Source of the DNA: an uncultured Chloroflexia bacterium | Lineage (GTDB): Bacteria > Chloroflexota > Dehalococcoidia > Dehalococcoidales > RBG-16-60-22 | DNA length: 64,000 bases | Assembly: GCA_963739395.1 (NCBI GenBank) | Contig: CAVUAE010000001.1 | Coordinates: 1,094,056 to 1,158,055, forward strand | Reading direction: 5' to 3' | Shown: positions 1,983-60,197 of the stretch, piece by piece | How positions within the stretch are numbered: position 1 is the stretch's first letter | How the letters are laid out: the number at the start of each line of letters is the position of its first letter | Notes under the pieces: generated by a model | Seen by the model: only the letters and a program-made list of their open reading frames with translations | Databases searched by the model: none | Told to the model about the DNA's origin: nothing | Position numbers and translations under genes: made by a program

Positions 1983-3599
1983 ATGAAAAAGCCAAGGCTT
2001 GCATTAGGCCTGGACATCGGCACGCAGGGTATTTCCGCCGTTGTTCTTGACATAGATAAACGCACCAAAATTCATGAGCATTCCCTTGATTATTGCCAGG
2101 ATGCGAGGCTGAATATCTTTGGCATCCGTAAAGAAGATTACATTTTACCTTCGGAATCTGAGGGAGAAGCCAGCCAGCCGCCGTTAATGTTTTTTGCGTC
2201 GCTGGATGCCATCTTTGACGACCTTAAAAAACATATACCTTTAAAGGATATCGTCGTCGTTAACAATTCTAGTCAGCAGCATAGCCACGTCTACCTTAAT
2301 CACGAGGCGTTATCGATTTTCAAAAAATTATCGGTAGAAGCATCAGCATCATCGGACCTCGTCAACCTGCTCAAAGACAGCCTCGCATATCAGCGCGCGC
2401 CGATATGGATGACCTCGAATACTGACGAACAGGCGGAACATATCCGTAAATATGTCGGCGGTAAAGAAAAAGCCATTAAATTATGTGGTTCGGATATACC
2501 TCTCAGATTTACCGGCGTAATCATGAGGCACGTCGCCCAGCAGTATCCGGAAATTTATGCACAGACAGACAATATCCAGCTAATCAGTAGTTTGGTCACT
2601 GCTATCCTTACGGGTAATTCAAAAACGCCCATCGACTACGGTAATGCCTGCGGCATGGTGTTGATGGATTACCAGCAACAAGCATGGTCGGATATCCTGA
2701 TAAAAGCCGCTGCCGATGGATTGGCCGGAGGTGAAGAGGTTTTTCGTAGCAAACTATCGACCATCGTCTCACCCTGTACAATCTCGGGTAAGATAGCTTC
2801 GTATTTCGTGTTCAAATACGGTTTTTCCCCGATGTGCCAGATTGTTGCCGGCTCGGGAGACAATCCGCAATCAAAGGTATTGGTAGGCGGTGATTTACTC
2901 AGTCTAGGCACGAGTCTTGTCTATATGGTATCCACCGATGGAGAAACCTTTGATATGAATGGTTTTGCTAACGCCATGTATGATGGCCTGGGTAAACCAT
3001 TCATCTTTAGCTGCCGCACCAATGGTACGATGGTTTGGGACAAGCTAAGAGAAATATATGGCTTGAAAAAAGAAGAATACGAACCTGCTGAGGAGGCATT
3101 GCGCCATACGCCTGTTGGACAAAATTTATTATTTTGGCAACCAAGGGATGAGTCATTCCCTCCTTCTGGCAAAATAGAAATGGTGAGGATTGGTAATGAA
3201 AAACCTGGTCTGGGCGCTGATTATGCCGGGCTTATCGAGACCACATTGGCTTCGGTATATTATCATTCACAAGATTTTTCAAAGAACACCAAAGAAAAAA
3301 TTTACGTTACCGGTGGCGCAGTTAATAGCCGTGAAATCATACGGCGAATTGCCGCGATATGGAGTCGGCCGGTAGTGACGCTGGACGAGTGCGGAGCAGC
3401 ATTAGGGGCAGCCATCGCCGGGGCTTATGCGTTTTTAAGGACATCGCCAAAAATAGAAAATATAGAGAAATTCAACGGCTTAGATTTTACTAAACAAAGC
3501 CAGCCGATTCAGCCACGGACTGACGATGTAGTAACTTTTCATCGTCCCGGTCGCTATCTGGACATTTTTGTCAAAGAAGAAGCAAGATTGCTGGTATAA
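1983..3599 (+). CDS. FGGY-family carbohydrate kinase (xylulokinase-like)
   Basis: N-terminal LGLDIGTQGISAVVLD phosphate-binding motif, GSGDNP, and YVTGGA near the C-terminus. Follows the GH3 gene after an 11-nt gap. Substrate cannot be assigned. Confidence 0.8.
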   Translation: MKKPRLALGLDIGTQGISAVVLDIDKRTKIHEHSLDYCQDARLNIFGIRKEDYILPSESEGEASQPPLMFFASLDAIFDDLKKHIPLKDIVVVNNSSQQHSHVYLNHEALSIFKKLSVEASASSDLVNLLKDSLAYQRAPIWMTSNTDEQAEHIRKYVGGKEKAIKLCGSDIPLRFTGVIMRHVAQQYPEIYAQTDNIQLISSLVTAILTGNSKTPIDYGNACGMVLMDYQQQAWSDILIKAAADGLAGGEEVFRSKLSTIVSPCTISGKIASYFVFKYGFSPMCQIVAGSGDNPQSKVLVGGDLLSLGTSLVYMVSTDGETFDMNGFANAMYDGLGKPFIFSCRTNGTMVWDKLREIYGLKKEEYEPAEEALRHTPVGQNLLFWQPRDESFPPSGKIEMVRIGNEKPGLGADYAGLIETTLASVYYHSQDFSKNTKEKIYVTGGAVNSREIIRRIAAIWSRPVVTLDECGAALGAAIAGAYAFLRTSPKIENIEKFNGLDFTKQSQPIQPRTDDVVTFHRPGRYLDIFVKEEARLLV

Positions 3600-3707
3600 T
3601 TATTCCATAATAAAAACTATGTTGGAGGGCACTTTTAAATGGTAAATACTAAATATGGTAAGTATGTAATTAGAAAATCGGTAACAAAACCAGAACCTTG
3701 ACCAACT

Positions 3708-4058
3708 ATGGAATGGATCGGCGAAACCGATTATAAAACCAACGTCACCTTTATGATCACCCGTGTGATGGCGCCGTGCAAAATGGAAGAGTACCCCCAT
3801 TCTCACGACTTTGACATGTATTTACATTTCATTTCATATGATTATGAACATATGGATGACCTGTTCGCGGAGATAGAAATCGGTTTAGGCGAAGAGCAGG
3901 AAATGCATACCATCACCTCACCAGCCAGCGTCTATATTCCCGCCGGATTAATACATTGCCCACTTATTTTCAAAAAAGTGGATAAACCCATTATTCTCTT
4001 TCATACCAGCATTGCGTCTAAATATGTAAAAAAAGAAGATTCAATTAAAAAACCTTAG
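3708..4058 (+). CDS. Small cupin-like hypothetical protein
   Basis: PHSHDFDMYLHF and YIPAGLIHCP resemble cupin metal-site motifs. No RBS at ATG 3708. An RBS-led ATG at 3639 is in frame but separated by TGA 3699-3701 (see findings). Confidence 0.5.
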   Translation: MEWIGETDYKTNVTFMITRVMAPCKMEEYPHSHDFDMYLHFISYDYEHMDDLFAEIEIGLGEEQEMHTITSPASVYIPAGLIHCPLIFKKVDKPIILFHTSIASKYVKKEDSIKKP

Positions 4059-4099
4059 ACATTACTGGAACTGTTACCCAAAAAATAAGGAGTAAACAA

Positions 4100-5077
4100 A
4101 TGAACCCTGACCTTACAGAATTATTAGACCCCGAACTAAAAGGACCTATCAAGATGATGTTAAGCCAGATGCCGCCAACCTCTTTCGACAATCTGCCTGC
4201 GGCGCGTGCCGCTTCCAAACAAATGATGGCAGCGATGAAAAATCAGATGCCAGTCATTCCAGGTGTCATTACCGAAGACAGAATAATTCCGGGTCCTAAA
4301 GGTGCTCCCGATGTAACCGTAAGAATCTATCGTCCAGAAAAACAGACTGGTTTACTTCCTGCCCTGCTCTGGATTCATGGCGGAGGCTATATGCTCGGTG
4401 AAATCGACCAGGAAGATTTTTCAGCAAAGCAATTCACGTTAGCCGGTAATTGCGTTGTCGTATCGGTAGAATACCGATTAGCTCCGGAGAATCCTTATCC
4501 AGCTCCACTAGAAGACTGTTATGCTGCTTTGAAATGGCTAGCAGCCCATACTGATGAGTTAAAGGTAGACCGTTCACGTATCGCCATCGGGGGTGCGAGC
4601 GCTGGGGGCGGACTTGCCGCTGGGCTGGCTCTTCTGGCACGCGACCGAGCCGAAGTTGAAATTATGTTTCAGTTATTAATCTATCCCATGATTAACGACT
4701 GCAATGTCACTCCTGCTAGTGATACCTTACCTGACACCCTTTTCTGGACCAGGGAAAACAATTTAATAGGCTGGCGCTCATACCTTGGCAGTAAACCTGG
4801 AGGCAAAGGAATCTCTTACTACGCAGCGGCTTTCAGAACTACCAAATTAGAAGGACTTCCTCCGGCGTATATAACTGTGGGTGACATTGACCTGTTTGCC
4901 CAGGAAGACGTTGAGTATGCACGTAGGTTAATTGCCGCCGGCGTCCCCACCGAACTTCATGTCTATCCCGGAGGCTGTCATGCTTTCGATATGCTCATCC
5001 CTGGTGCTGACATTTCTAAACGATTTACGTCCGATATACACCGGGCGTTAAAACGGGCACTTCACCAATCAGAATAA
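4100..5077 (+). CDS. Alpha/beta hydrolase, hormone-sensitive-lipase-like esterase
   Basis: HGGGY oxyanion-hole motif, GGASAGG nucleophile elbow, C-terminal CHAFD histidine. RBS AAGGAG upstream. Confidence 0.85.
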   Translation: MNPDLTELLDPELKGPIKMMLSQMPPTSFDNLPAARAASKQMMAAMKNQMPVIPGVITEDRIIPGPKGAPDVTVRIYRPEKQTGLLPALLWIHGGGYMLGEIDQEDFSAKQFTLAGNCVVVSVEYRLAPENPYPAPLEDCYAALKWLAAHTDELKVDRSRIAIGGASAGGGLAAGLALLARDRAEVEIMFQLLIYPMINDCNVTPASDTLPDTLFWTRENNLIGWRSYLGSKPGGKGISYYAAAFRTTKLEGLPPAYITVGDIDLFAQEDVEYARRLIAAGVPTELHVYPGGCHAFDMLIPGADISKRFTSDIHRALKRALHQSE

Positions 5078-5122
5078 ACAGAATTTAAGCCTTAAAACTT
5101 TCAGAACTTGAGGGTTACGTAA

Positions 5123-5929
5123 ATGAATGTTAAGGAAGTCGTCGAAATTGTATTAACGTTAAATGGTGGAAGAAAATTTGAAAAAACCTGCGACCAGCTT
5201 ATCGAAGGCAGCTGGGAGTATCAAGTGACCGGTATTGTTACGACATTTATGGCCACCGTCGAGGTAATTCGCCGGGCAATTAAAATGGGCTGCAACCTAA
5301 TCATTACCCATGAACCAACTTATTTTACTGGTTTAGACAACACAGACTGGGTAAAAGATGACTCGGTTTATCAGCAGAAAAAGGGTTTGATTGACGATAA
5401 TAAAATATCAATCTGGCGGTACCATGACCATATGCATAGCGGTAATGAAGACCTTATTTATGCCGGATTATTAAAAGACCTGGGATGGACGAAGTATTTA
5501 AACAAAGAATTCCCATTGCCGCATTGTTATACGATTCCTGTAACAGCAGTTAAAACTTTAGTTGGCTTTTTGAAGAAGACCCTCGGCATGAAGGTTATAC
5601 AAATCGTTGGCAACTCAGATATGAAATGCAGTCGAGTCGGCATACTAGTCGGCGGAGGCAGCCTTGGACTTGGCCGTGAAGAGATGCCAGCCAAGCTGAT
5701 GAACGATCAACAGCTGGATGTGATAATCTGCGGCGAAATCACCGAATGGACATTAAGCGCCTATGTTCGTGACGCCGCGGCTTTAAGCTTCAACAAAGCG
5801 ATGATTGTTGTAGGACATGAACGAAGCGAAGAACCCGGTATGAAAGAGCTGGCTAACCGACTACAGCCACTTTTAAAAGAAATTCCGGTTCAATTTGCAG
5901 ACGCCGAAGAGCCGTTTACATATCTATAA
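5123..5929 (+). CDS. NIF3-family dinuclear metal-centre protein
   Basis: NIF3 motifs ITHEPTYF, WRYHDHMH, VVGHERSEEPG. Confidence 0.8.
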   Translation: MNVKEVVEIVLTLNGGRKFEKTCDQLIEGSWEYQVTGIVTTFMATVEVIRRAIKMGCNLIITHEPTYFTGLDNTDWVKDDSVYQQKKGLIDDNKISIWRYHDHMHSGNEDLIYAGLLKDLGWTKYLNKEFPLPHCYTIPVTAVKTLVGFLKKTLGMKVIQIVGNSDMKCSRVGILVGGGSLGLGREEMPAKLMNDQQLDVIICGEITEWTLSAYVRDAAALSFNKAMIVVGHERSEEPGMKELANRLQPLLKEIPVQFADAEEPFTYL

Positions 5930-5957
5930 AATTACTTAATAGTTATTTAACTCTACC

Positions 5958-6057: not shown

Positions 6058-8229
6058 TCAACTAGCAAATTGGCTAATATCCCTGTAAAGTTGTTTTAAA
6101 TGATGGTCGGATAAATCTATCAGAGGTTCATACATGAAGGAATTGAGGTGGATAGCTTCCGGTGTCATCATTATGACCCTAGACAATAGTTTTCTAGATT
6201 CTTTGTCTGACGGAAATTTCTTTACAAAGTTGTCGAATAGCACTCTCGTTTGATTTCCACTAATATCTACTGTAACCGCGGGGTCATTTATTTTTTTTAT
6301 GATTGCTTTTTCAGCTTTGAGCCTTATTGCGATTGACAAAACGATTTTATTCTCAAGGTTAATAGTTTCGACATTATTGAGACAACACTCATCCGCCTGC
6401 TGAAAAATAAGAGAAATTACTGTGGTATTATCTGAGGTGATTGAAGGCGCAGGCGTAAATATAGTTCCATAGATAGATGCTAAATCGTTTAATGTAATCG
6501 AGTCTGTATCTGATTTGTAATGGAGTAATGACGTTAACTTTAAATACTCATGGTTAGATCGCCCTTTAGTATATTCAATAATGTTACGCGCCATTGGTAT
6601 AGTAGCTATTAGACAATTTTTATTGCCAGGCAGTTGATCTTTCCAACGTGTAAATGGAGTTCTTAAGCAATCAGCTTGTACCAATTTCACTTCTGATTCA
6701 GACTTGATTGACATCAGGCAATTCTCCCAATATACAGGAAGTCGGCTTTGTACTGTTCTAAAAAAATCAAAGTTATGAGTTAACAATAGAATTAGAAATT
6801 TTTTGGTTTCCTCTATTTCTTTCAAGTATTCAATGATCGCAAATTTGTTTTTGTAGTCAAAAGAATCTGCGATATCATCTAATACTAGAATAGTTTGATA
6901 ATCCTCTGTCTCACGTGCTCTTATCTCGTAAATTATATCTAATATATACAAAGCTCTTTTCTCGCCTGTACTTAATACACTTAACAATTCCACTTTATTC
7001 ATCTCACAGCGGTCAGTGCCATCTATATAATTAAAAGTTATTTTAGGTGTAATTTCCTTAAGAATCACTTCTTCTTGATTAGCTACTTCAATTTCGAAGG
7101 GTACTGTAAAACGTTCTTTAAAAATATTGATAACCTCTCGCCAACGAGTTTCTTGACTTCTTGCCTTATTAACAATTGAATCTATTTGTTTTTTACCTTC
7201 CTTAAAAACCTCAAGAAAATTTTTATAAAGTTCCTTCTCAGAAATTAGATAAGAAATCCATAGTTTCTTTTTGAAAGTATCAACACTAGCCAATTCAGGT
7301 AAAATTTTCATATTGTCTAATAGGTATTGATGAAACTTACGAAGTTCAGCATTACCCATAATCTTGAAATCAATTGAATTAAATTTATCCTTAAGTTCGG
7401 GATTATTTAATATTCGGTTTTCCTCTTCGGAAATAACTGCATCAAAATCAGATTGCGATGTAATTTCTGTTTTTTTAGAAGATGAATCTGATAGTAAAAT
7501 AGCATGTTTAGCGGAAAAGTATTTATTAGCTTTTAGGTTTTTTGATACAGTAGATGCGTTGTAGTGATTGAAGCCACCCTTTCTGAAATAATTTGAACTG
7601 TCGATAATTTCATTGTATTTATCAATATAGTCACACAACAAGGAATGCATGCCTGGTGATTTTAAAAAGGGTTCAGTCTTATCATTTATTACTTCGGAAT
7701 AAAGAATATCAGCAAAATCTGACGATGATGAATTAACATTATCTTGTAGTTTTGATAATAATAATGAACTGTCATTTGATTTATCATCGAAAGCTGATAG
7801 CATTAGTTGTTCAGCGTTCTTTTTTGTATTAGAAACTTTACCAATAGCTGATAATAGAGTAAGTCTAGAACTTTCAATAGATTTTGCTGTTGATTCGTAT
7901 TGTTTCCTTAATTCTTCGTCTACAAGCAAAGTAGATATACGTTCAGATTCGTATTTTTCGTCATATGAGTCAACGACAAATATATGAAGAGGGTTTAAAG
8001 AGTTACCTGTTTCGTCTTTAATATTACATAGTGCTGTTCTTTGAGTATAAATAGCGTCTCTAGGTTCTCTTGATTGGCTAAGGTCATTAAATACTTTTGC
8101 AAGGGATGTTTTCATTGCACCATTGGGAGCATAGAGTAAGAATGAGTTCGCATTAGTAGTAGCAAAGTCAAATTCATGTTTAAGTGCTTTTATTCCATAA
8201 CAATTTTTCAAATCAACGGAAATTTTCAT
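6058..8229 (-). CDS. AAA_13-like ABC-type ATPase with long coiled-coil insert and C-terminal effector-like domain (PrrC/RloC-like architecture)
   Basis: Degenerate Walker A LLYAPNGAMKTSLAKVF, ABC signature LSTGEKRALYIL, Walker B ILVLDDIADSFD, H-loop LLLTHNFDFF. About 300 aa of helical, low-complexity sequence lies between Walker A and the signature motif. The C-terminal 200 aa contain RNIIE...H...H. Confidence 0.65.
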   Translation of the reverse strand: MKISVDLKNCYGIKALKHEFDFATTNANSFLLYAPNGAMKTSLAKVFNDLSQSREPRDAIYTQRTALCNIKDETGNSLNPLHIFVVDSYDEKYESERISTLLVDEELRKQYESTAKSIESSRLTLLSAIGKVSNTKKNAEQLMLSAFDDKSNDSSLLLSKLQDNVNSSSSDFADILYSEVINDKTEPFLKSPGMHSLLCDYIDKYNEIIDSSNYFRKGGFNHYNASTVSKNLKANKYFSAKHAILLSDSSSKKTEITSQSDFDAVISEEENRILNNPELKDKFNSIDFKIMGNAELRKFHQYLLDNMKILPELASVDTFKKKLWISYLISEKELYKNFLEVFKEGKKQIDSIVNKARSQETRWREVINIFKERFTVPFEIEVANQEEVILKEITPKITFNYIDGTDRCEMNKVELLSVLSTGEKRALYILDIIYEIRARETEDYQTILVLDDIADSFDYKNKFAIIEYLKEIEETKKFLILLLTHNFDFFRTVQSRLPVYWENCLMSIKSESEVKLVQADCLRTPFTRWKDQLPGNKNCLIATIPMARNIIEYTKGRSNHEYLKLTSLLHYKSDTDSITLNDLASIYGTIFTPAPSITSDNTTVISLIFQQADECCLNNVETINLENKIVLSIAIRLKAEKAIIKKINDPAVTVDISGNQTRVLFDNFVKKFPSDKESRKLLSRVIMMTPEAIHLNSFMYEPLIDLSDHHLKQLYRDISQFAS

Positions 8230-52417: not shown

Positions 52418-52639
52418 TAATATCTATTTTATATGGTAAAAAATAAAAAATAAATATGATTTTCTCATCTTCCTTATGATTTTTTAGTAGTTAACTTAAA
52501 TAATTAAAATTTTCTCATCAGGGTAAAAACATTCTAGCAGTGTACTTCAGTGGGTGCAAGAGAAACGTTCTTATCACGAAAAGCTAGATTGGCTTGCGGT
52601 AAAAGTCGGTATAGTTTAAAATGTTAGCATAATTGAATA

Positions 52640-52740
52640 TTGCCACTAGGGGAGCTGAATGGCTGAGAGTTCCCCCGATGAAGTCGGGGGACTGACCCTT
52701 TGAACCTGAACTCGGTAATGCGAGCGTAGGGAAGTGAAAA
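52640..52740 (+). promoter_or_regulatory. TPP (THI-box) riboswitch aptamer
   Basis: CACTAGGGGAGC...GGCTGAGAG...ACCCTTTGAACCTGAACTCGGTAATGCGAGCGTAGGGAAGTG matches the conserved THI-box core. Confidence 0.88.
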
Positions 52741-52742
52741 CC

Positions 52743-52785
52743 AAAACCAGAAGTAGGTTCCCCTTAAGCTTCTGGTTTTAATATT
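52743..52785 (+). terminator. Riboswitch expression-platform terminator
   Basis: AAAACCAGAAG...CTTCTGGTTTT stem, then TAATATTTTT. RBS AGGAGG and ATG 52802 follow. Confidence 0.7.
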
Positions 52786-52801: not shown

Positions 52802-53863
52802 ATGGCTGACATGCCGGAAATAGGTAAAATATCCCCGGAAATTTTTAGCGAGTTAATTTATCCGCGGCTGGGCGCGAAAAGCAAAAACATCTTGGTGGGA
52901 CCGCAGCATGGCGTGGATGTAGGCATTGCGGAAATAGGGGGCAAGGCGGTATCATTCACCACCGACCCCGTTTTTATCGTGCCGGAATATGGTTGGGAGA
53001 GAGCCGCCTGGTTTGCTATCCATATCATTGCGTCGGACTCCGTTACCAGCGGGCTTAAGCCTAAGTTCTTAAGCATCGACCTTAACCTGCCGATGGAGAT
53101 GACGAAAAAACAGCTGGAGATAACTTGGGATATCATTCACCGCGAGTGTGAAAAAATGGGGATAGCGGTAATCACCGGTCATACCGCCCGCTATGAAGGT
53201 TGCCATTATCCGATGGTCGGGGGCGCTACTCTTATTGGCGTTGGTGAACTTGATGAATACGTTACCCCTAAATTCTGTAAAGCCGGCGACAAAATAATCA
53301 TTACCAAAGGTCCGGCCATCGAAGCGACTGGCATTTTTGCCGCGATGTTACCTGGTGTCATTACCGAAAAATATGGTACGGAGCTTAACCATAAAGCTCA
53401 ACAGGTCTTTTATAAAATGACCGTCGTCGAGGACGCCATAACCGCGGTCAGTGTTGGCGTTCGGGATAAGGGTGTTACTGCCATGCACGACGCTACCGAG
53501 TGTGGCATTTGGGGCGGATTATACGAAATCGCTCAAGCCTCGGGGTTAGGCGTGAGGGTGGAAAAAGAAAAAATCGTGGTTGAGGAATCAGTCGAAGAGG
53601 TTTGTCGTTTATTCGGCATCGACCCTTATGCCTCTATCAGCGAAGGTACATTGATAATTGCCTGCAAAGAACGTAAAGCTGCGTCGGTAATCGAAGCGCT
53701 GACGCAAAAGGGCATTAAATCATCAATCGTCGGCAAGCTGACGCAATCGGACAAAGGCATGGTGTTAGTAGAAAACGGTAAAGAAAAGAAGCTGGAACAC
53801 CCCATTGTTGACCCGTTCTGGCGGGCTTTCTACGGGGCGCTGGAGAAATATAAGACCACTTAA
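52802..53863 (+). CDS. PurM/HypE/ThiL-superfamily (AIR-synthase-related) protein under TPP control
   Basis: GVDVGIAEIGGKAVSFTTDPVFIVP and AVITGHTARY resemble the HypE/ThiL N-domain ATP-binding pattern. Sits directly behind the TPP riboswitch. Confidence 0.7.
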   Translation: MADMPEIGKISPEIFSELIYPRLGAKSKNILVGPQHGVDVGIAEIGGKAVSFTTDPVFIVPEYGWERAAWFAIHIIASDSVTSGLKPKFLSIDLNLPMEMTKKQLEITWDIIHRECEKMGIAVITGHTARYEGCHYPMVGGATLIGVGELDEYVTPKFCKAGDKIIITKGPAIEATGIFAAMLPGVITEKYGTELNHKAQQVFYKMTVVEDAITAVSVGVRDKGVTAMHDATECGIWGGLYEIAQASGLGVRVEKEKIVVEESVEEVCRLFGIDPYASISEGTLIIACKERKAASVIEALTQKGIKSSIVGKLTQSDKGMVLVENGKEKKLEHPIVDPFWRAFYGALEKYKTT

Positions 53864-54007: not shown

Positions 54008-54090
54008 AAACAGGGCGCAATGAGATAAAAGTCATTTCCATTAGCCTCGGCATAAGATTATGCTTATAATGAGTGTTGGAGAAAGTATGT

Positions 54091-55275
54091 ATGAACAAAG
54101 TATATTTGGATAATACTGCCGGCGCGCCCGTTCTCCCGGAAGTTAAACAGGCGATGTTGCCTTATTTTGGAGAAATTTTTGGCAACCCCCAGTCTTTACA
54201 TGATTGGGGTGATACGGCGCGGCAAGCTGTGGATAATGCGCGGGAAAAGGTAGCCAGTCTTATCGGCGCCAGTCCTGAGGAAATTATATTTACCAGCGGC
54301 GGCACCGAGAGCAATAATCTAGCTGTTAAAGGTATTGCATTGGCTCAGCAGTCTAAGGGCAAACATGTGGTGGTCTCCGCAATAGAACATTTTTCAGTCC
54401 TGCACTCTGCCAGAACGTTAGAAAAATGGGGCTTCGAGGTTACCGAGGTACCGGTAGATAAATACGGCGTCGTCAATCCCGATGATGTGAAGAAAAGTAT
54501 TAGAAAAGATACCGTTCTGGTTTCTATCATGCACGCCAACGGCGAGATAGGCACCATTGAGCCGATTAAAGAAATCGCGGCCATCACCCGGGAAATGAAA
54601 ATCTCTTTACATACAGACGCCGTTGCGACCGCGGGGACAATACCAGTCAACGTTAACGATCTTGACGTGGACGCTTTAAGCTTGGCCGGCAACCAGTTCT
54701 TCGGCCCTAAAGGAACCGGCGCTTTGTGGGTGCGCAAGGGTTTGAGGCTGATGCCTCTCCTCGATGGCGGTATACAAGAAGGTGGGCGTCGGGGTGGCAC
54801 TGAAAATGTGCCGGGCATTGTCGGATTGGGTGTAGCGGCGGAAATCGCGGCGGCGCAAATGCAGTCCCGGATAAACCAGCTGACGCCTATGCGCGACTAT
54901 TTACTCGATGAGTTGCCGCGCCGGGTCGGGCATGTGGTAGTCACCGGTCATCAGCAGAATCGTTTGCCAGGGCATGCCAGCTTTTGTGTGGAGTTCATCG
55001 AGGGGGAAGCCATGCTGATGCTCTTAAACAGCAAAGGCATCGCCGTTTCCAGCGGTTCAGCCTGCACCTCGCGGGCGCTTAAGGCGTCCCATGTGCTTAT
55101 AGCGTTAGGTCTTTCTCATGAAATTGCCCAGGGCTCGATACTCTTTACCCTGGGGTTGGATAACACTAAAGTAGATATTGAATATGTTCTGGAGACCATG
55201 CCACCAGTCGTTGACAGGCTGCGGAAAATGTCTCCGCTCTATGATAAATACGTAAAAGCTGACAAAGGAGGATAA
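54091..55275 (+). CDS. nifS: Cysteine desulfurase (NifS/IscS type)
   Basis: [26 protein letters not shown], catalytic SSGSACTS. Start at ATG 54091. Confidence 0.92.
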
Positions 55276-55276
55276 C

Positions 55277-55663
55277 ATGCCGGTATATAACGAAAAAGTA
55301 ATGGACCATTTCATGAACCCGCGTAACGTGGGTGAAATTGAAAACCCGGATGGCGTCGGTGAGGTAGGTAATCCCGTCTGTGGGGATATGATGACCTTCT
55401 ATATCAAGGTCAAGGACAACAAACTCGCAGATGTTAAGTTCAAAACCTTCGGATGCGGGGCGGCTATTGCTGTTTCAAGCATGGTCAGTGAGATGGCCAT
55501 GGGCATGACGCTGGAAGAAGCGATGAAACTCACTCCCGCAGCGGTGGCGGACAACCTGGAAGGGCTGCCTCCAAATAAGATGCACTGCTCCAATCTAGGC
55601 GCCCAAGCTTTACATGAGGCAATCAAACAGTACCAGGGCAAGCAAAAAAAGAAGCTGAAATAG
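55277..55663 (+). CDS. iscU: Fe-S cluster scaffold (IscU/NifU N-domain)
   Basis: GNPVCGDMM, FKTFGCGAAIA, MHCSNLG cluster-ligand motifs. Confidence 0.92.
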   Translation: MPVYNEKVMDHFMNPRNVGEIENPDGVGEVGNPVCGDMMTFYIKVKDNKLADVKFKTFGCGAAIAVSSMVSEMAMGMTLEEAMKLTPAAVADNLEGLPPNKMHCSNLGAQALHEAIKQYQGKQKKKLK

Positions 55664-55798
55664 ACAACAGCCAGGATACCGCTAAAGATGAAGCTCATAC
55701 CTGCCCCTATTGTGAAGAAGAGATAGCTGACGCAGCTTTCCCATACTGTCAGGCCTGCACTATAAAAGACAAGGAAACCGTAGACGGAGGCTAGAGAT

Positions 55799-56299
55799 AT
55801 GGCGAAGCAGGAAAAGACCACCAAAAAAGAAAAAATGACCATCGTCGTCTTCAGCGGCGAACTGGATAAAGCCCTGGCGGCTTTTATACTGGCGACCACC
55901 GGCGCTAGCATGGGGATGGATGTCAGCATGTTTTTCACCTTCTGGGGATTGAATATCCTTAAGAAAAACAAGGGTGGGCCGGGTGGCAAGGGGATACTGA
56001 AAAAGATGCTCAACTTTATGAACCGGGGCGGTTCAAAACGGTTAAAGCTCTCGAAGTTCCATATGTTTGGCATGGGCACGGCGATGATGAAGAAGTTCAT
56101 GAAGGAAAGCCACCTGCCTTCTATCGACGAGTTCATCCAGATGGCAAAGGACATGGGTGTGAAAATGGTTCCTTGTTCCACATCTTGTGGGGTGATGGGC
56201 TTGGGTGAAGGCGCCTTCCGTGAAGAGGTTGGCAGCCTGGCCGGTGCCGCCTTTTTCCTGAACGAAGCCCGCCAGTCCAAAGTGACCCTATTTATTTAG
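55799..56299 (+). CDS. DsrE/DsrF-like sulfur-relay family protein
   Basis: MTIVVFSGELDKALAAFILA...FFTFWGL pattern, and adjacency to tusA. Confidence 0.6.
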   Translation: MAKQEKTTKKEKMTIVVFSGELDKALAAFILATTGASMGMDVSMFFTFWGLNILKKNKGGPGGKGILKKMLNFMNRGGSKRLKLSKFHMFGMGTAMMKKFMKESHLPSIDEFIQMAKDMGVKMVPCSTSCGVMGLGEGAFREEVGSLAGAAFFLNEARQSKVTLFI

Positions 56300-56315
56300 T
56301 TGTGAGGAGCGAAAT

Positions 56316-56546
56316 ATGAAAGCAGACCAGACTTTAGACTGCGTGGGTTTGTATTGTCCCATGCCTATCGTGAAAACGGCGCAGAAAATCAAAGAGCTTA
56401 AGACAGGTGAGGTGTTGGAGGTGATGGCTGATGATAAAGGCATCAAGCAAGACATGCCCGCCTGGGCGCAGGCTACGGGCAACGAATTTTTAGGTGTAGA
56501 AGAATCTAACGGAGAAATTAAAGTTTACGTTAGAAAGAAAAAGTGA
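56316..56546 (+). CDS. tusA: TusA/SirA-family sulfurtransferase
   Basis: LDCVGLYCPMPIVK (CPxP motif); 76 aa. Confidence 0.88.
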   Translation: MKADQTLDCVGLYCPMPIVKTAQKIKELKTGEVLEVMADDKGIKQDMPAWAQATGNEFLGVEESNGEIKVYVRKKK

Positions 56547-57967: not shown

Positions 57968-58206
57968 CGCTCCCTCCTAATACGCCGTTATAACAACATT
58001 TAACCAATAGATATTTACATTATACACCTAATTATTAACGACAGGAATATGCCCTGTTTATAAATGATTTTGTTTATATATTTTACGTTTATGATAAGTT
58101 TGAATTCGATATTAACAAAACGTTTAGAGAATTTATGAAAATATTTATGATCTGTTTACTTTTTTACGAATAATATTAATTGAAATATCTAACTAATAAA
58201 ACTCTT

Positions 58207-59019
58207 ATGAAAAGACGCATTATCAGGCGAGTCAGGTCTGTCAGTTCAGCGGCTGGTGTCGCTCAAGGTCAACCGGGGGGATTGAAGTTATTAACCAATG
58301 ATATTTTGAAACAATTCAATCCTTCCATACTTGGTTTGGGCGATGTTAATACACCTTGTCAGGAAATAGAAGCCATCGCCGCCGTATTTGACCTCTCCGG
58401 TTTTACCACATTTTGTAATCAGGTTGATGCTTATTTGGCTATCCCATCGTTTCTCAATAATTTCTTCGAATGGCTTTTTGGCAGTATCGTCTATGGTCTC
58501 ACTGATGAGGAAGGCAATCGCACTTATTTTTGGGCAGACCTGCCGATACTTGTAAAATTCACTGGCGACGGCATTCTCGTTGTTTGGAACTCCCATAAAA
58601 TGAAGGAAGACCAAATTTGCCGTTTAGCTGCCACCCTTTACAATATCTGTAATGCCTACCGACAGGATTTTTATCCCCAGATAAACAGCATAGTTAATAA
58701 ACCGCCAACTGTACTCCGCTGCGGTTTAGCGAGAGGGAAAGTTTTTAGCGTAGGCAATGGCAACGATTATATCGGTCATTGTATTAATACTGCTTCAAGA
58801 CTTTCAGGTCTCACTCCTTTAACTATTTGTTTCCCCCACCGCGGATTTGCGGTACAGGAATATATGCCTCCGGAATATGCGCGGCTTTTTGTGTTAAAGA
58901 ATGTTGCTATCCGCGGCGTCGGTGAAGACGAGCGGATATGGGTAGTTAAAGAAGAATTTGATAATTTGTCGGAAAGAAACAAGGCTATGTTTCGCAGCTC
59001 TGAAAGCGTGACTGTATAA
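58207..59019 (+). CDS. Minimal class III nucleotidyl cyclase (cyclase homology domain only)
   Basis: Metal Asp motifs AVFDLSGFT and KFTGDGILVVW, RCGLARGKVFSV, and the transition-state motif GHCINTASRL. No sensor or TM domain. The start could be ATG 58207 or TTG 58180; neither has a good RBS. Confidence 0.7.
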   Translation: MKRRIIRRVRSVSSAAGVAQGQPGGLKLLTNDILKQFNPSILGLGDVNTPCQEIEAIAAVFDLSGFTTFCNQVDAYLAIPSFLNNFFEWLFGSIVYGLTDEEGNRTYFWADLPILVKFTGDGILVVWNSHKMKEDQICRLAATLYNICNAYRQDFYPQINSIVNKPPTVLRCGLARGKVFSVGNGNDYIGHCINTASRLSGLTPLTICFPHRGFAVQEYMPPEYARLFVLKNVAIRGVGEDERIWVVKEEFDNLSERNKAMFRSSESVTV

Positions 59020-59057
59020 GCAGCCGCTATCCGACTGCGAGAAAAAGGGGAACGACA

Positions 59058-60197
59058 ATGGTTAATAGTTTAGAAAAAACAGGATTTAGAAAAATATTTC
59101 CAGGCAACACCGAGCGGGATAATATCATGCGTTTAGAGTTGCTTTGTGGCGCTGACAAAGAAACGGAAAATGATACGCGGTTGTCGGATTTGCTGGAACA
59201 GGTTATCATGATGACCCAGCGTACGCTTAATGCCGAGGCGGCTTCGGTGCTTTTATTCAGGGATAATGACCAGGAGTTATATTTCGAAGCTGTTACTGGT
59301 CCTGTCGGCAAAGCGTTGCGGCAAGTAAGATTAAGCTCTCAATACGGCATTGCCGGTCAGGTAGTACGCACCGGCAAACCACTGATTGTAAATGATGTTA
59401 CTCGTAGCACGAATTTTCATAAGGTCATTGACGATACTACCGGTTTTTATACTAAATCGTTGGTTTGCGCCCCTCTAAGCATCGGTCGTAAAGTTCTTGG
59501 CGTAATTGAAGTGCTCAACAAATGCGAAGGAAGAACTTTCGACGAGGATGATATGGAAACCGTTGTTTCCGTGGCTAATACTACCGCTATGGCGGTTGAA
59601 AATACCCGAATCCGCCAAACTTTAATGGAAGCCTACAAAAATACCATTGTGGCGCTGGCGGCAGCTGTTGATGCCAAAGACCCTTATACACGGGGTCATT
59701 CTGAAAGAGTAATGGGATACGCATCCAAGGCTGGCATAGTGCTTTCCTTCTCTGCTGATGAGATAGAGACGCTGGAATACGCAGGCATCCTCCATGATAT
59801 TGGCAAATTAACTATTGATTCCAGTGTGTTGACCAAGTCTGAACCTTTAACATCAGGAGAATGGGAGATAATGCGTACCCATCCAGTTACCGGGGCGGAC
59901 CTTTTAAGAGAGATTCCTTTTTTGGAAAATGCTGCCGAGCTTGTGCTTAGCCACCATGAAAGGTACGATGGCACGGGTTATCCCAAGGGACTAAAAGGTG
60001 ACGATATACCCTTAGGCGCCCGCCTCATTGCCGTGGCTGAAGCTTTTGACACCATGACTACCGACCGGGCTTACCGCTCGGCTTTGCCTATTGATATAGC
60101 CGTTAAAGAGCTCAACATTTGCGCCGGCACTCAATTCTGTCCTATGGCGGTTAAAGCCTTAATTGAAGGACTACGCCTCAACGAGTGTGGCAAGTAA
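59058..60197 (+). CDS. GAF-domain HD-GYP phosphodiesterase
   Basis: GAF core (AEAASVLLFRD...GIAGQVVRTGKPLIVNDV...VLGVIEVLNK), then HD-GYP motifs GILHDIGKL and SHHERYDGTGYPKGL. Confidence 0.85.
   Translation: MVNSLEKTGFRKIFPGNTERDNIMRLELLCGADKETENDTRLSDLLEQVIMMTQRTLNAEAASVLLFRDNDQELYFEAVTGPVGKALRQVRLSSQYGIAGQVVRTGKPLIVNDVTRSTNFHKVIDDTTGFYTKSLVCAPLSIGRKVLGVIEVLNKCEGRTFDEDDMETVVSVANTTAMAVENTRIRQTLMEAYKNTIVALAAAVDAKDPYTRGHSERVMGYASKAGIVLSFSADEIETLEYAGILHDIGKLTIDSSVLTKSEPLTSGEWEIMRTHPVTGADLLREIPFLENAAELVLSHHERYDGTGYPKGLKGDDIPLGARLIAVAEAFDTMTTDRAYRSALPIDIAVKELNICAGTQFCPMAVKALIEGLRLNECGK

Follow-up and report, generated by a model that had tools for sequence, protein, structure and literature searches.

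A fixed pairing of a divergent class III cyclase with a GAF-HD-GYP protein in Dehalococcoidales: a candidate relay between cAMP and c-di-GMP

The gene pair, its promoter and its neighbourhood

The window analysed here is a 64-kb stretch of DNA from an uncultured member of the Dehalococcoidales, in which two adjacent genes on the forward strand encode a divergent class III nucleotidyl cyclase (ORF1) and a GAF-HD-GYP protein (ORF2). The pair and its upstream region are laid out as follows.

57968 to 58206, no strand: divergent spacer between glnA (minus strand) and the cyclase gene, with further GTTTA(T/G) boxes inside
58122 to 58176, plus strand: candidate promoter/operator, three GTTTA boxes followed by a -10-like hexamer
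58122 to 58128, plus strand: box 1, GTTTAGA
58143 to 58149, plus strand: box 2, ATTTATG
58154 to 58159, plus strand: box 3, GTTTAC
58171 to 58176, plus strand: -10-like hexamer, TAATAT
58207 to 59019, plus strand: ORF1, 270 aa, starting MKRRIIRRVRS
59020 to 59057, plus strand: intercistronic gap of 38 nt, with an SD-like AAGGGGA at 59045 to 59051
59058 to 60197, plus strand: ORF2, 379 aa

Both reading frames and the 38-nt gap lie where an earlier note on this DNA had placed them, and every motif quoted in it was found (FDLSGFT, KFTGDG, RCGLARGKV and GHCINTASRL in ORF1, HDIGK and HHERYDGTGYP in ORF2). The same holds for its description of ORF1 as lacking a recognisable ribosome-binding site behind an AT-rich spacer: the upstream sequence contains no Shine-Dalgarno sequence, and the spacer has 24% G+C vs 47% across the window. 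The AAGGGGA of the intercistronic gap sits 7 nt ahead of the ATG of ORF2; in the orthologous loci the gap measures between 4 and 254 nt, and about 36 nt in most. We place the start of ORF1 at the ATG at 58207 and not at the TTG at 58180 because the homologues share an MKR or MKK start, which falls at this position in 34 out of 34 aligned sequences. Furthermore, the -10-like hexamer at 58171-58176 is conserved, so that the transcript start would fall 3' of the TTG.

The three boxes are spaced in a register of 21 and 11 nt. All 45 orthologous loci, like the window itself, carry the consensus T.AC.AAATGTTTAGAC-N13-GTTTATGnTTTGTTTAY-N11-TAatAT ahead of the cyclase gene, and on both strands of 540 kb it has only nine other matches at one mismatch or fewer. 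A search of the whole window against Rfam assigned nothing between glnA and the cyclase gene to an RNA family, and the upstream element is thus taken to act as DNA; the ATG follows it by only 41 nt in some loci, and several orthologues appear to be leaderless. Direct repeats in an 11-nt register that replace the -35 element are the typical layout for activators of the OmpR/PhoB/GlnR type, and the promoter would be driven by an activator of this kind. A GlnR-like gene adjoins the pair in many genomes, and we would guess that its product binds the boxes. In L001, the closest relative, such a GlnR-like gene (Trans_reg_C, 222 aa, positions 5094-5762 on the minus strand) separates glnA from the cyclase gene; the window lacks it. 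We considered a nitrogen regulon and found no support for it in motif sharing, since the boxes are not common to glnA or GOGAT and were not found upstream of either in the 540 kb of flanking sequence.

The earlier note proposed conservation of the gene pair as a check, and the co-occurrence is borne out. With ORF1 as the query, each of the 45 unique Dehalococcoidales genomes had the two genes side by side in one orientation, and an independent search with ORF2 gave 24 loci, all with the pair adjacent. Across loci the identities of ORF1 and ORF2 to the window proteins co-vary (r = 0.87). The position of the pair between glnA/GOGAT genes and nuoEF-like genes is fixed in the 45 genomes, and in about 35 of the 45 loci the neighbours are glnA, GOGAT genes or a GlnR-like regulator. 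Directly downstream, 24 of 52 loci carry an orthologous metallo-beta-lactamase (MBL) gene; the one in L003 (8044-8811) encodes 256 aa. Two of the four members of this third family that were tested reached the cut-off of Pfam PDEase_II, with scores near the cut-off, and their PDB matches were weak and of the RNase J type only. In a sister Chloroflexota clade the orthologous GAF-HD-GYP gene is instead preceded by a canonical, Pfam-recognised cyclase gene (241-243 aa) which overlaps its start. The linkage has therefore outlasted a replacement of the cyclase type, which would be surprising if the two products had no direct functional link. None of eight loci examined from the wider cyclase family has a GAF-HD-GYP partner, and within that family the pairing belongs to the Dehalococcoidales clade alone.

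The cyclase and its predicted product

The product of ORF1 can be divided into the following parts.

Residues 1-21: basic N-terminus, predicted to be disordered
Residues 53-247 (approximate): catalytic core, a stand-alone class III cyclase homology domain
Predicted catalytic residues: D62 and D121 (metals); K117 and D187 (base); R171, N194 and R198

The earlier note's assignment of ORF1 to the class III cyclases stands on fold and on profile homology, although no curated family library recognises the protein. ORF1 gave no match at E ≤ 1 to Pfam (including PF00211, Guanylate_cyc), NCBIfam or PADLOC, and 0 of 62 family members matched PF00211 at E ≤ 0.01 (the member L054 gave E 0.0034, below the cut-off). 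When the AF2 model of ORF1 (pLDDT 85.6) was searched against the PDB with Foldseek, the top 50 matches were class III cyclase domains without exception, with E-values from 3.5e-9 to 5e-7 and target-length-normalised TM-scores (TMt) of up to 0.70. Sequence identity to the class III adenylyl cyclases CyaC and CyaB is 16-21%, and detection of the cyclase by PDB sequence search needed a broad family profile (A2), which found CyaC (1wc0) at E 1.1e-7 in an alignment that pairs KFxGD, RCGI and xGPxxNxAARLQ; ORF1 alone or a profile of close homologues (A1) returned only chance matches, such as nanobodies and linker proteins. Comparison of the ORF1 family with a canonical PF00211 cyclase by hhalign gave a probability of 88.6%. 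On the modelled structure and this profile homology, ORF1 is a class III cyclase fold, and its family, which amounts to some 400 clusters at 50% identity, goes unrecognised by Pfam.

Residues D62, K117, D121, R171 and N194 are invariant among the 62 family members, which span 26-53% identity, and conservation of D187 and R198 is 90% or more. D62, D121, N194 and R198 align with their counterparts in CyaC and in the canonical cyclase, and K117 aligns to K1057 of CyaC. D187 lies seven residues before N194, the same spacing as that of the CyaC specificity residue Thr1139; the equivalence is one of spacing, and HMMER pairs D187 two residues earlier in CyaC. ORF1 is thus like CyaC (Spirulina platensis, 1WC1) and CyaB (Pseudomonas aeruginosa, 3R5G) in its fold, the two metal Asp, the base Lys and the transition-state Asn and Arg, and unlike them in having no sensor domain, in failing PF00211, and in carrying several conserved cysteines and family-specific N- and C-terminal extensions.

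In class III cyclases a Lys combined with Asp or Thr denotes ATP as the substrate, and Glu combined with Cys denotes GTP. By this rule the Lys117/Asp187 pair would predict that ORF1 uses ATP, and the nucleotide specificity, which the earlier note had held to be unreadable by eye, would be in part readable. That the family makes something non-canonical, be it cCMP, cUMP or another nucleotide, with the GAF-HD-GYP protein as its dedicated receptor, appears improbable to us. Such a product would fit a family that is invisible to PF00211, the presence of the uridylate cyclase AnPycC (8jsz) among the structural matches of ORF1 (query-length-normalised TM-score, TMq, 0.53), and the pocket Lys that clade D PycC likewise keeps (PMC11224242). 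Against this, Lys117/Asp187 would be the canonical adenine pair, no PycC chain in the PDB is as near in sequence to the family profile as the adenylyl cyclase CyaC, and the sister clade has cyclases of the ordinary Lys/Ser type.

Likeness to the cyclases of Pycsar antiphage systems, to which the earlier note had drawn attention, is confined to a small single-domain signal generator with a class III fold, and the comparison fails beyond that point. In Pycsar the effector joins a CAP-type cNMP-binding domain to a TM or TIR module (PMC11224242) and the system resides in defence islands, whereas Pfam finds no CAP-type cNMP-binding domain, TM segment or TIR domain in ORF2, and the pair lies in core, housekeeping synteny that is vertically conserved in 45 of 45 genomes with the same GAF-HD-GYP partner in each. 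That the pair serves defence, as a Pycsar-like or another abortive-infection system whose effector is the GAF-HD-GYP protein, is accordingly very hard to credit, even if the small cyclase without a sensor would suit one and distant family members do occur in defence-like settings (an AbiTii fusion in P0212, and a TIR-only neighbour by ParDE in L054). The PycC models of PADLOC do not match ORF1 at E ≤ 1. Three of 62 relatives match them weakly (E 2e-4), and these matches were rejected as generic because the models give an ordinary cyclase E 9e-22. Finally, 2.9 million viral contigs yielded a single weak match.

The GAF and HD-GYP domains of ORF2

ORF2 is a GAF domain joined to an HD-GYP domain, as the earlier note had it, with Pfam GAF and HD_5/HD matches at these positions.

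Residues 42-180, approximately nt 59181 to 59603, plus strand: GAF domain
Residues 202-358, approximately nt 59661 to 60131, plus strand: HD-GYP domain (HD_5/HD; HD_5 at E 2e-37)

The structural prototype of this architecture, PmGH of Persephonella marina (4MCW/4MDZ), aligns over its full length (4mcw residues 6-349 to ORF2 residues 21-366, E 1.5e-53). The closest PDB relatives of the ORF2 GAF are Lcd1, PDE2A, PDE10A and CyaB2, and with the exception of PmGH all GAF-only PDB matches at E ≤ 1e-8 are cNMP-binding GAFs; the domain is nearer to these (8.6e-21 for the closest solved GAF, that of Lcd1) than to the GAF of PmGH (2.4e-14). The ligand contacts of PDE2A GAF-B, which we take to be S424, F438, D439, I458, A459, Y481, V484, D485, T488, T492 and E512, fit the 1mc0 sequence in 11 of 11 identities at one constant offset. 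In ORF2 seven of them are identical (S63, I98, A99, D125, T128, T132 and E151) and the other four are exchanged (V484 for Ile, F438 for Val/Ala, Y481 for His and D439 for Thr/Ser), and nine of the 11 contact positions are invariant across 45 ORF2 orthologues. By sequence, the GAF belongs to the cNMP-binding kind.

The alternative that the two genes are co-regulated but not producer and receiver, so that the GAF would sense 2-oxoglutarate, glutamine or a similar metabolite and the cyclase would signal to other receptors, is distinctly unlikely. The GAFs of NifA and PtsP provide a precedent for such sensing, the nitrogen-assimilation neighbours in about 35 of 45 loci would be in keeping with it, and ORF2 has partial NCBIfam matches to PtsP (E 4e-13) and NifA (E 1.5e-11). 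However, the matches to cNMP-binding GAFs are far stronger (78 bits for Lcd1 and 74 for PDE2A vs 48 and 44 for PtsP and NifA), the positions of the cNMP phosphate and ribose contacts are invariant, and glnA and GOGAT lack the promoter boxes in their upstream regions.

In the HD-GYP domain H214, H246, D247, H299, H300, E301, D331 and G307-Y308-P309 are invariant in the 45 orthologues. ORF2 shares the metal ligands, GYP and RxY[K/R] with PmGH, which has a trinuclear centre with Glu185 as the third-metal ligand; the corresponding residue is Tyr210 in the window and Tyr, His or another non-acidic residue in all orthologues, which places ORF2 in the binuclear subclass of HD-GYP proteins. The c-di-GMP-binding determinants of HD-GYP domains are RxY[K/R] and KPG (10.1101/2021.11.05.467447). 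The first reads RAYR in the window protein, with R/Y/R kept in 34-41 of 45 orthologues, and the second, which contacts Gua2, is KPG in PmGH vs KSE in the window protein, with KPG retained in 29-31 of 45. The NKFDE motif is preserved only in part.

It could also be supposed that what the cyclase makes is itself the substrate of the HD-GYP domain, with feed-forward control through the GAF, making the pair a cNMP homeostat in which c-di-GMP has no part. We regard this as unlikely, though it deserves a hearing: cyclase and hydrolase share one operon, the regulatory GAFs of PDE2, PDE5 and PDE10 are among the nearest solved GAFs, and KPG, which grips the second guanine, has been lost from the window protein. 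As a substrate, cGMP exerts feed-forward control of this sort in mammalian PDE2 and PDE5, and Aravind and Koonin reportedly assigned the eukaryotic cNMP phosphodiesterases to the HD superfamily in 1998, which would also favour a homeostat. So would the absence of any GGDEF gene from the window and its flanks: a motif search for GGDEF, EAL and other cyclase genes found none in the 64-kb window and 540 kb of orthologous flanks, too small a sample from which to judge a genome-wide absence, and our search of the literature on diguanylate cyclases in Dehalococcoidia found nothing informative. On the other side, GYP is invariant, RxY[K/R] (34-37 of 45) and KPG are kept in most orthologues, and the separate class-II-PDE-like MBL gene of 24 of 52 loci would be redundant. 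Moreover, all of the HD-GYP enzymes reviewed in 10.1101/2021.11.05.467447 use c-di-GMP or cGAMP.

The proposed relay and its precedents

The best explanation of these observations, in which we have moderate confidence, is a two-gene second-messenger relay encoded in one operon, in which cAMP gates the hydrolysis of c-di-GMP. ORF1 would act as a homodimeric, sensor-less class III cyclase that most likely converts ATP to cAMP. Lacking a sensor, it would probably be controlled chiefly at the level of transcription. Binding of the cNMP to the GAF of ORF2 would switch on the binuclear HD-GYP domain allosterically, which would then cleave c-di-GMP, probably to pGpG, so that a cAMP signal would bring c-di-GMP down. 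The MBL protein encoded by the third gene in about half of the related genomes, resembling class II phosphodiesterases, would probably remove the cNMP; the gene appears to have been lost from the lineage of the window. The pair is thus most likely a hard-wired link of two second messengers and not a phage defence system.

The producer-receiver arrangement proposed in the earlier note gains from the conserved pairing (45/45 and 24/24), the cNMP-type GAF and the pairing in the sister clade; as a type of wiring it is not new. Tlr0485 of Thermosynechococcus vulcanus is, like ORF2, a GAF-HD-GYP protein, and by its description it follows the cAMP-to-c-di-GMP logic proposed here. Its activation by cAMP is said to have been found by Enomoto and colleagues in 2020. 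It is described as a cAMP-activated GAF-HD-GYP c-di-GMP phosphodiesterase (10.1101/2021.11.05.467447; PMC8846402), so that a cAMP-activated GAF-HD-GYP is established in principle; these two sources report no operon-encoded dedicated cyclase for Tlr0485, whereas ORF2 is paired with a minimal cyclase and a conserved promoter. Two further proteins join the same messengers in other ways. Lcd1 of Leptospira interrogans (5W10) also links cAMP and c-di-GMP, but its cAMP-binding GAF is fused to GGDEF and serves c-di-GMP synthesis, as opposed to the degradation proposed for ORF2. In Bd1971 of Bdellovibrio bacteriovorus, cAMP or cGMP turns on c-di-GMP hydrolysis by an EAL domain (PMC6717892), the cNMP-binding domain being of the CAP type, where ORF2 combines GAF with HD-GYP.

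There is a slim chance of a more unusual pathway, in which either the cyclase family makes a nucleotide other than cAMP or cGMP or these genomes have no diguanylate cyclases, and the GAF-HD-GYP protein would be both receptor and hydrolase of a messenger new to HD-GYP. The GlnR-like regulator and the three-box promoter would possibly connect such a self-contained pathway with nitrogen assimilation. Should the genomes lack diguanylate cyclases, the substrate range of HD-GYP proteins would need rethinking.

So far, signalling from cAMP to c-di-GMP by way of GAF-HD-GYP has been a matter of one cyanobacterial protein in vitro; the logic proposed here would make it a fixed operon across an order of mostly uncultured and environmentally important anaerobes. 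That a widespread cyclase family is missed by domain libraries means that censuses of cyclic-nucleotide signalling undercount families of this kind. With a generator, a receiver and often a candidate remover of the signal encoded together behind a conserved promoter, the locus offers a minimal system in which a whole relay may be reconstituted.

Linkage of the gene pair and its promoter

Both genes described in the earlier note, together with their spacing and all of the quoted motifs, were found in the window as claimed:

58207-59019, + strand: ORF1, a divergent class III cyclase-like protein of 270 aa
59058-60197, + strand: ORF2, a GAF-HD-GYP protein of 379 aa, 38 nt after ORF1

A mechanical ORF list sets the start of ORF1 further upstream, at TTG 58180; all 34 aligned homologues begin with MKR or MKK at the ATG position, and a conserved -10-like hexamer (58171-58176) would place the transcript start 3' of this TTG. 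The reported lack of a ribosome binding site before ORF1 behind an AT-rich spacer was borne out, the spacer having 24% G+C against 47% for the window and no Shine-Dalgarno sequence. AAGGGGA lies 7 nt 5' of the ORF2 ATG.

Scanning of one genome per species identified ORF1 relatives in 44 genomes, all Dehalococcoidales or Dehalococcoidia MAGs. In 45/45 unique loci, one of which is cut by a contig end, the next gene on that strand is an ORF2 orthologue (59-82% identity), after gaps of 4-254 nt (mostly about 36 nt). In the reciprocal search, started from ORF2 in metagenomes, the cyclase gene comes immediately before 24/24 full-length orthologues of at least 58% identity whose upstream sequence was long enough. 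Conservation of the pair across genomes was confirmed from both sides. The identities of the ORF1 and ORF2 orthologues to the window co-vary (r = 0.87), which fits joint vertical descent of the pair.

The pair sits between nitrogen-assimilation genes and nuoE/nuoF-like genes, a setting which is housekeeping synteny and not a defence island. On the nitrogen side the neighbours are glnA, GOGAT subunits, or a 222-aa winged-helix (Trans_reg_C) regulator with a weak match to the GlnR N-terminal domain. The regulator gene is found near the pair in many loci besides that of the closest relative, L001, and is missing in the window, where a 240-nt spacer (57968-58206) rich in GTTTA boxes remains:

L001, 5094-5762, - strand: gene for the 222-aa regulator, between glnA and the cyclase gene
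Window, 58122-58176: promoter element of roughly 65 nt, with three GTTTA boxes in a 21- and 11-nt register and a -10-like TAatAT; the same in loci L001-L050

The window and all 45 loci have in common, 5' of the cyclase gene, T.AC.AAATGTTTAGAC-N13-GTTTATGnTTTGTTTAY-N11-TAatAT. This element is kept in 46/46 loci despite protein identities of only 55-84%, and elsewhere in 540 kb (both strands) only nine matches to the consensus with at most one mismatch occur. Its direct repeats keep an 11-nt register; 11 nt separate them from the -10 element, and there is no good -35. Such a layout is that of promoters activated by OmpR/PhoB/GlnR-type regulators. The element looks like a binding site for a winged-helix activator, and to name the regulator acting on the boxes would be a guess. 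In several orthologues the cyclase ATG is about 7 nt after the -10 element, which suggests leaderless transcripts and fits the absent ribosome binding site before ORF1.

Other features of the region were also recorded. In L004 (8126-10776, - strand) and 13 further loci, the space separating the pair from the nuoE-like gene holds two genes convergent to that for GAF-HD-GYP, one for a GAF-PAS histidine kinase and one for a GerE-type response regulator; the window lacks both. A NifS-like, NifU-like, DsrE-like and TusA-like cluster (window 54073-56546) just upstream of glnA is also kept in L001 and other glnA-adjacent loci. A TPP riboswitch (Rfam RF00059, 72 bits; 52638-52749, + strand) lies upstream of a 353-aa ORF (52802-53863).

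The ORF1 cyclase family

The assignment of ORF1 to the class III cyclases held for fold and profile homology, but the curated libraries were all silent: Pfam (including PF00211), NCBIfam and PADLOC gave zero matches at E<=1, and PDB sequence searches, whether with ORF1 alone or with a close-homologue profile, returned chance matches only. The AlphaFold2 model, with 34 homologues as input, was confident (mean pLDDT 85.6; disorder is predicted for residues 1-21), and the top 50 PDB structures matched to it by Foldseek are without exception class III cyclase catalytic domains (lowest E 3.5e-9), including CyaC, CyaB, Cya2, soluble and receptor guanylyl cyclases, photoactivated cyclases and, at rank 40, a Pycsar uridylate cyclase. 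Exhaustive profile searching yielded a family that forms 396 clusters at 50% identity; most of its proteins stand alone and are 255-290 aa long. Profile A2, made from 62 diverse members (26-53% identity), matches the adenylyl cyclase CyaC (E 1.1e-7) with KFxGD, RCGI and xGPxxNxAARLQ aligned, and hhalign of A2 against an ordinary PF00211 cyclase gave a probability of 88.6%.

D62, K117, G120, D121, G122, P167, R171, G190 and N194 are invariant in 62/62 members, and D187 and R198 are conserved in at least 90%; judged from the alignment, these include both metal-binding Asp, the base-contacting Lys, and the Asn and Arg of the transition state. Asp187 precedes Asn194 by 7 residues, the spacing of the CyaC specificity residue (Thr1139-Asn1146, counted in the A2 alignment) and also that of the adenine-specifying Asp of class IIIa enzymes. 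The Lys117/Asp187 pair predicts ATP as the substrate, with Asp187 as the specificity residue being something we infer, since HMMER aligns it two residues off relative to CyaC. That ORF1 makes a non-canonical product instead appears very doubtful. C51, C70, C138, C148, C172 and C192 are invariant in the Dehalococcoidales clade (C208 at least 90%), C172 and C192 being near-invariant throughout the family.

Distant members (37-50% identity) had no GAF-HD-GYP partner in the loci inspected, their genes lying after mfd or valS or in mobile or defence-like spots. Among distant members in defence-like or mobile settings, P0212 has an N-terminal AbiTii domain, that of L054 (genes at 5001-5930 and 6197-6859) adjoins a TIR-only (ThsB-like) protein and ParDE, and that of L055 is found amid RadC, AAA_24 and DUF3871 genes. 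An HD-GYP enzyme and a cyclase are natural neighbours in L128 as well, where a REC-HD-GYP response regulator (2372-3601) is directly followed by a REC-fused class III cyclase (3611-4933).

The link of this minimal cyclase to Pycsar-type phage defence, raised in the earlier note, did not survive comparison and is extremely improbable. ORF1 has no PycC match in PADLOC, and the weak PycC matches in the family are generic, given that these models also pick up an ordinary cyclase at E 9e-22. ORF2 has no TIR domain, TM segments or CAP-type cNMP-binding domain; conservation of the pair is vertical, and a single weak family match was found in 2.9 million viral contigs.

GAF and HD-GYP domains of ORF2

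Pfam places GAF at residues 42-180 and HD_5/HD at residues 202-358 of ORF2. Among solved structures PmGH is the closest relative; this structural prototype of the GAF-HD-GYP type has the same domain make-up and aligns full-length (E 1.5e-53). With the GAF domain alone, all PDB matches better than PmGH are cNMP-binding GAFs, namely Lcd1 with cAMP (5W10; E 8.6e-21), PDE2A GAF-B (E about 1e-19), PDE10A, PDE5, PDE6 and CyaB2. At the 11 residues which we take to be the cGMP contacts of PDE2A GAF-B (the set fits the 1mc0 sequence at one constant offset), ORF2 shows seven identities, two conservative changes and two differences (His for Tyr481, Thr for Asp439). Of the 11 positions, nine do not vary among 45 orthologues, and the guanine-selective Asp439 position is always Ser or Thr. 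Sensing of another metabolite by this GAF domain is quite improbable.

The HD-GYP metal ligands and the GYP are invariant in the 45 orthologues. Where PmGH has the Glu that binds the third metal, ORF2 and its orthologues have Tyr or His, which places ORF2, unlike PmGH, in the binuclear subclass; this subclass usually stops at pGpG (10.1101/2021.11.05.467447). The c-di-GMP-specifying RxY[K/R] is RAYR in the window and is kept in 34-37 of the 45, while KPG, present in about 30 of them, reads KSE in the window. No diguanylate cyclase genes were seen in the window or in 540 kb of flanks. A cNMP homeostat, in which the HD-GYP domain would degrade the cyclase product, is unlikely.

Cyclase replacement and the proposed relay

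A sister clade carries another cyclase before the GAF-HD-GYP gene, and in some loci of two Chloroflexota clades an MBL-fold gene follows:

L081, 3189-3914: canonical cyclase, 241 aa (PF00211, E 7e-22); 3911-5089: GAF-HD-GYP gene, 52% identical to ORF2; 4-nt overlap of stop and start
L140, 3273-4004: canonical minimal PF00211 cyclase, 243 aa; 4001-5185: GAF-HD-GYP gene, orthologous to ORF2; 4-nt overlap
L003, 8044-8811; L013, 10189-10956; L037, 10065-10832; L143, 5226-5993: MBL genes, 256 aa

Since L140-L142 share the arrangement of L081, two very different cyclase types occupy the same position before orthologous receivers. Of the comparative evidence, this swap speaks most strongly for a direct functional link. 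In L143 the MBL gene comes after the GAF-HD-GYP gene, and its product is 56% identical, without gaps, to a Dehalococcoidales MBL protein, the two belonging to different Chloroflexota clades. The gene is directly downstream of the GAF-HD-GYP gene in 24/52 Dehalococcoidales loci and absent from the window. Of four MBL proteins tested, two attain the gathering score of the Pfam model of class II cAMP phosphodiesterases, the family scoring near or above this cut-off, and a weak score was obtained on the anti-Pycsar Apyc1 model; the gene is a candidate remover of cNMP.

The producer-receiver reading proposed earlier is partly supported, by the linkage of the pair, the cNMP-type GAF and the cyclase swap. 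The best-supported reading as a whole, which we consider somewhat probable, is that cAMP from ORF1 gates c-di-GMP hydrolysis by ORF2. ORF1 would be a sensor-less adenylyl cyclase under transcriptional control, its cAMP would bind the ORF2 GAF and switch on c-di-GMP hydrolysis, and in many relatives the MBL phosphodiesterase would clear the cAMP. The logic of a cAMP-gated HD-GYP is already known: the principle has been published for the GAF-HD-GYP protein Tlr0485 (10.1101/2021.11.05.467447; PMC8846402), and Lcd1 and Bd1971 are analogues. New here is that the proposed relay is fixed as an operon with a conserved promoter, that domain libraries miss the partner cyclase family, and that the module occurs again with a canonical cyclase.
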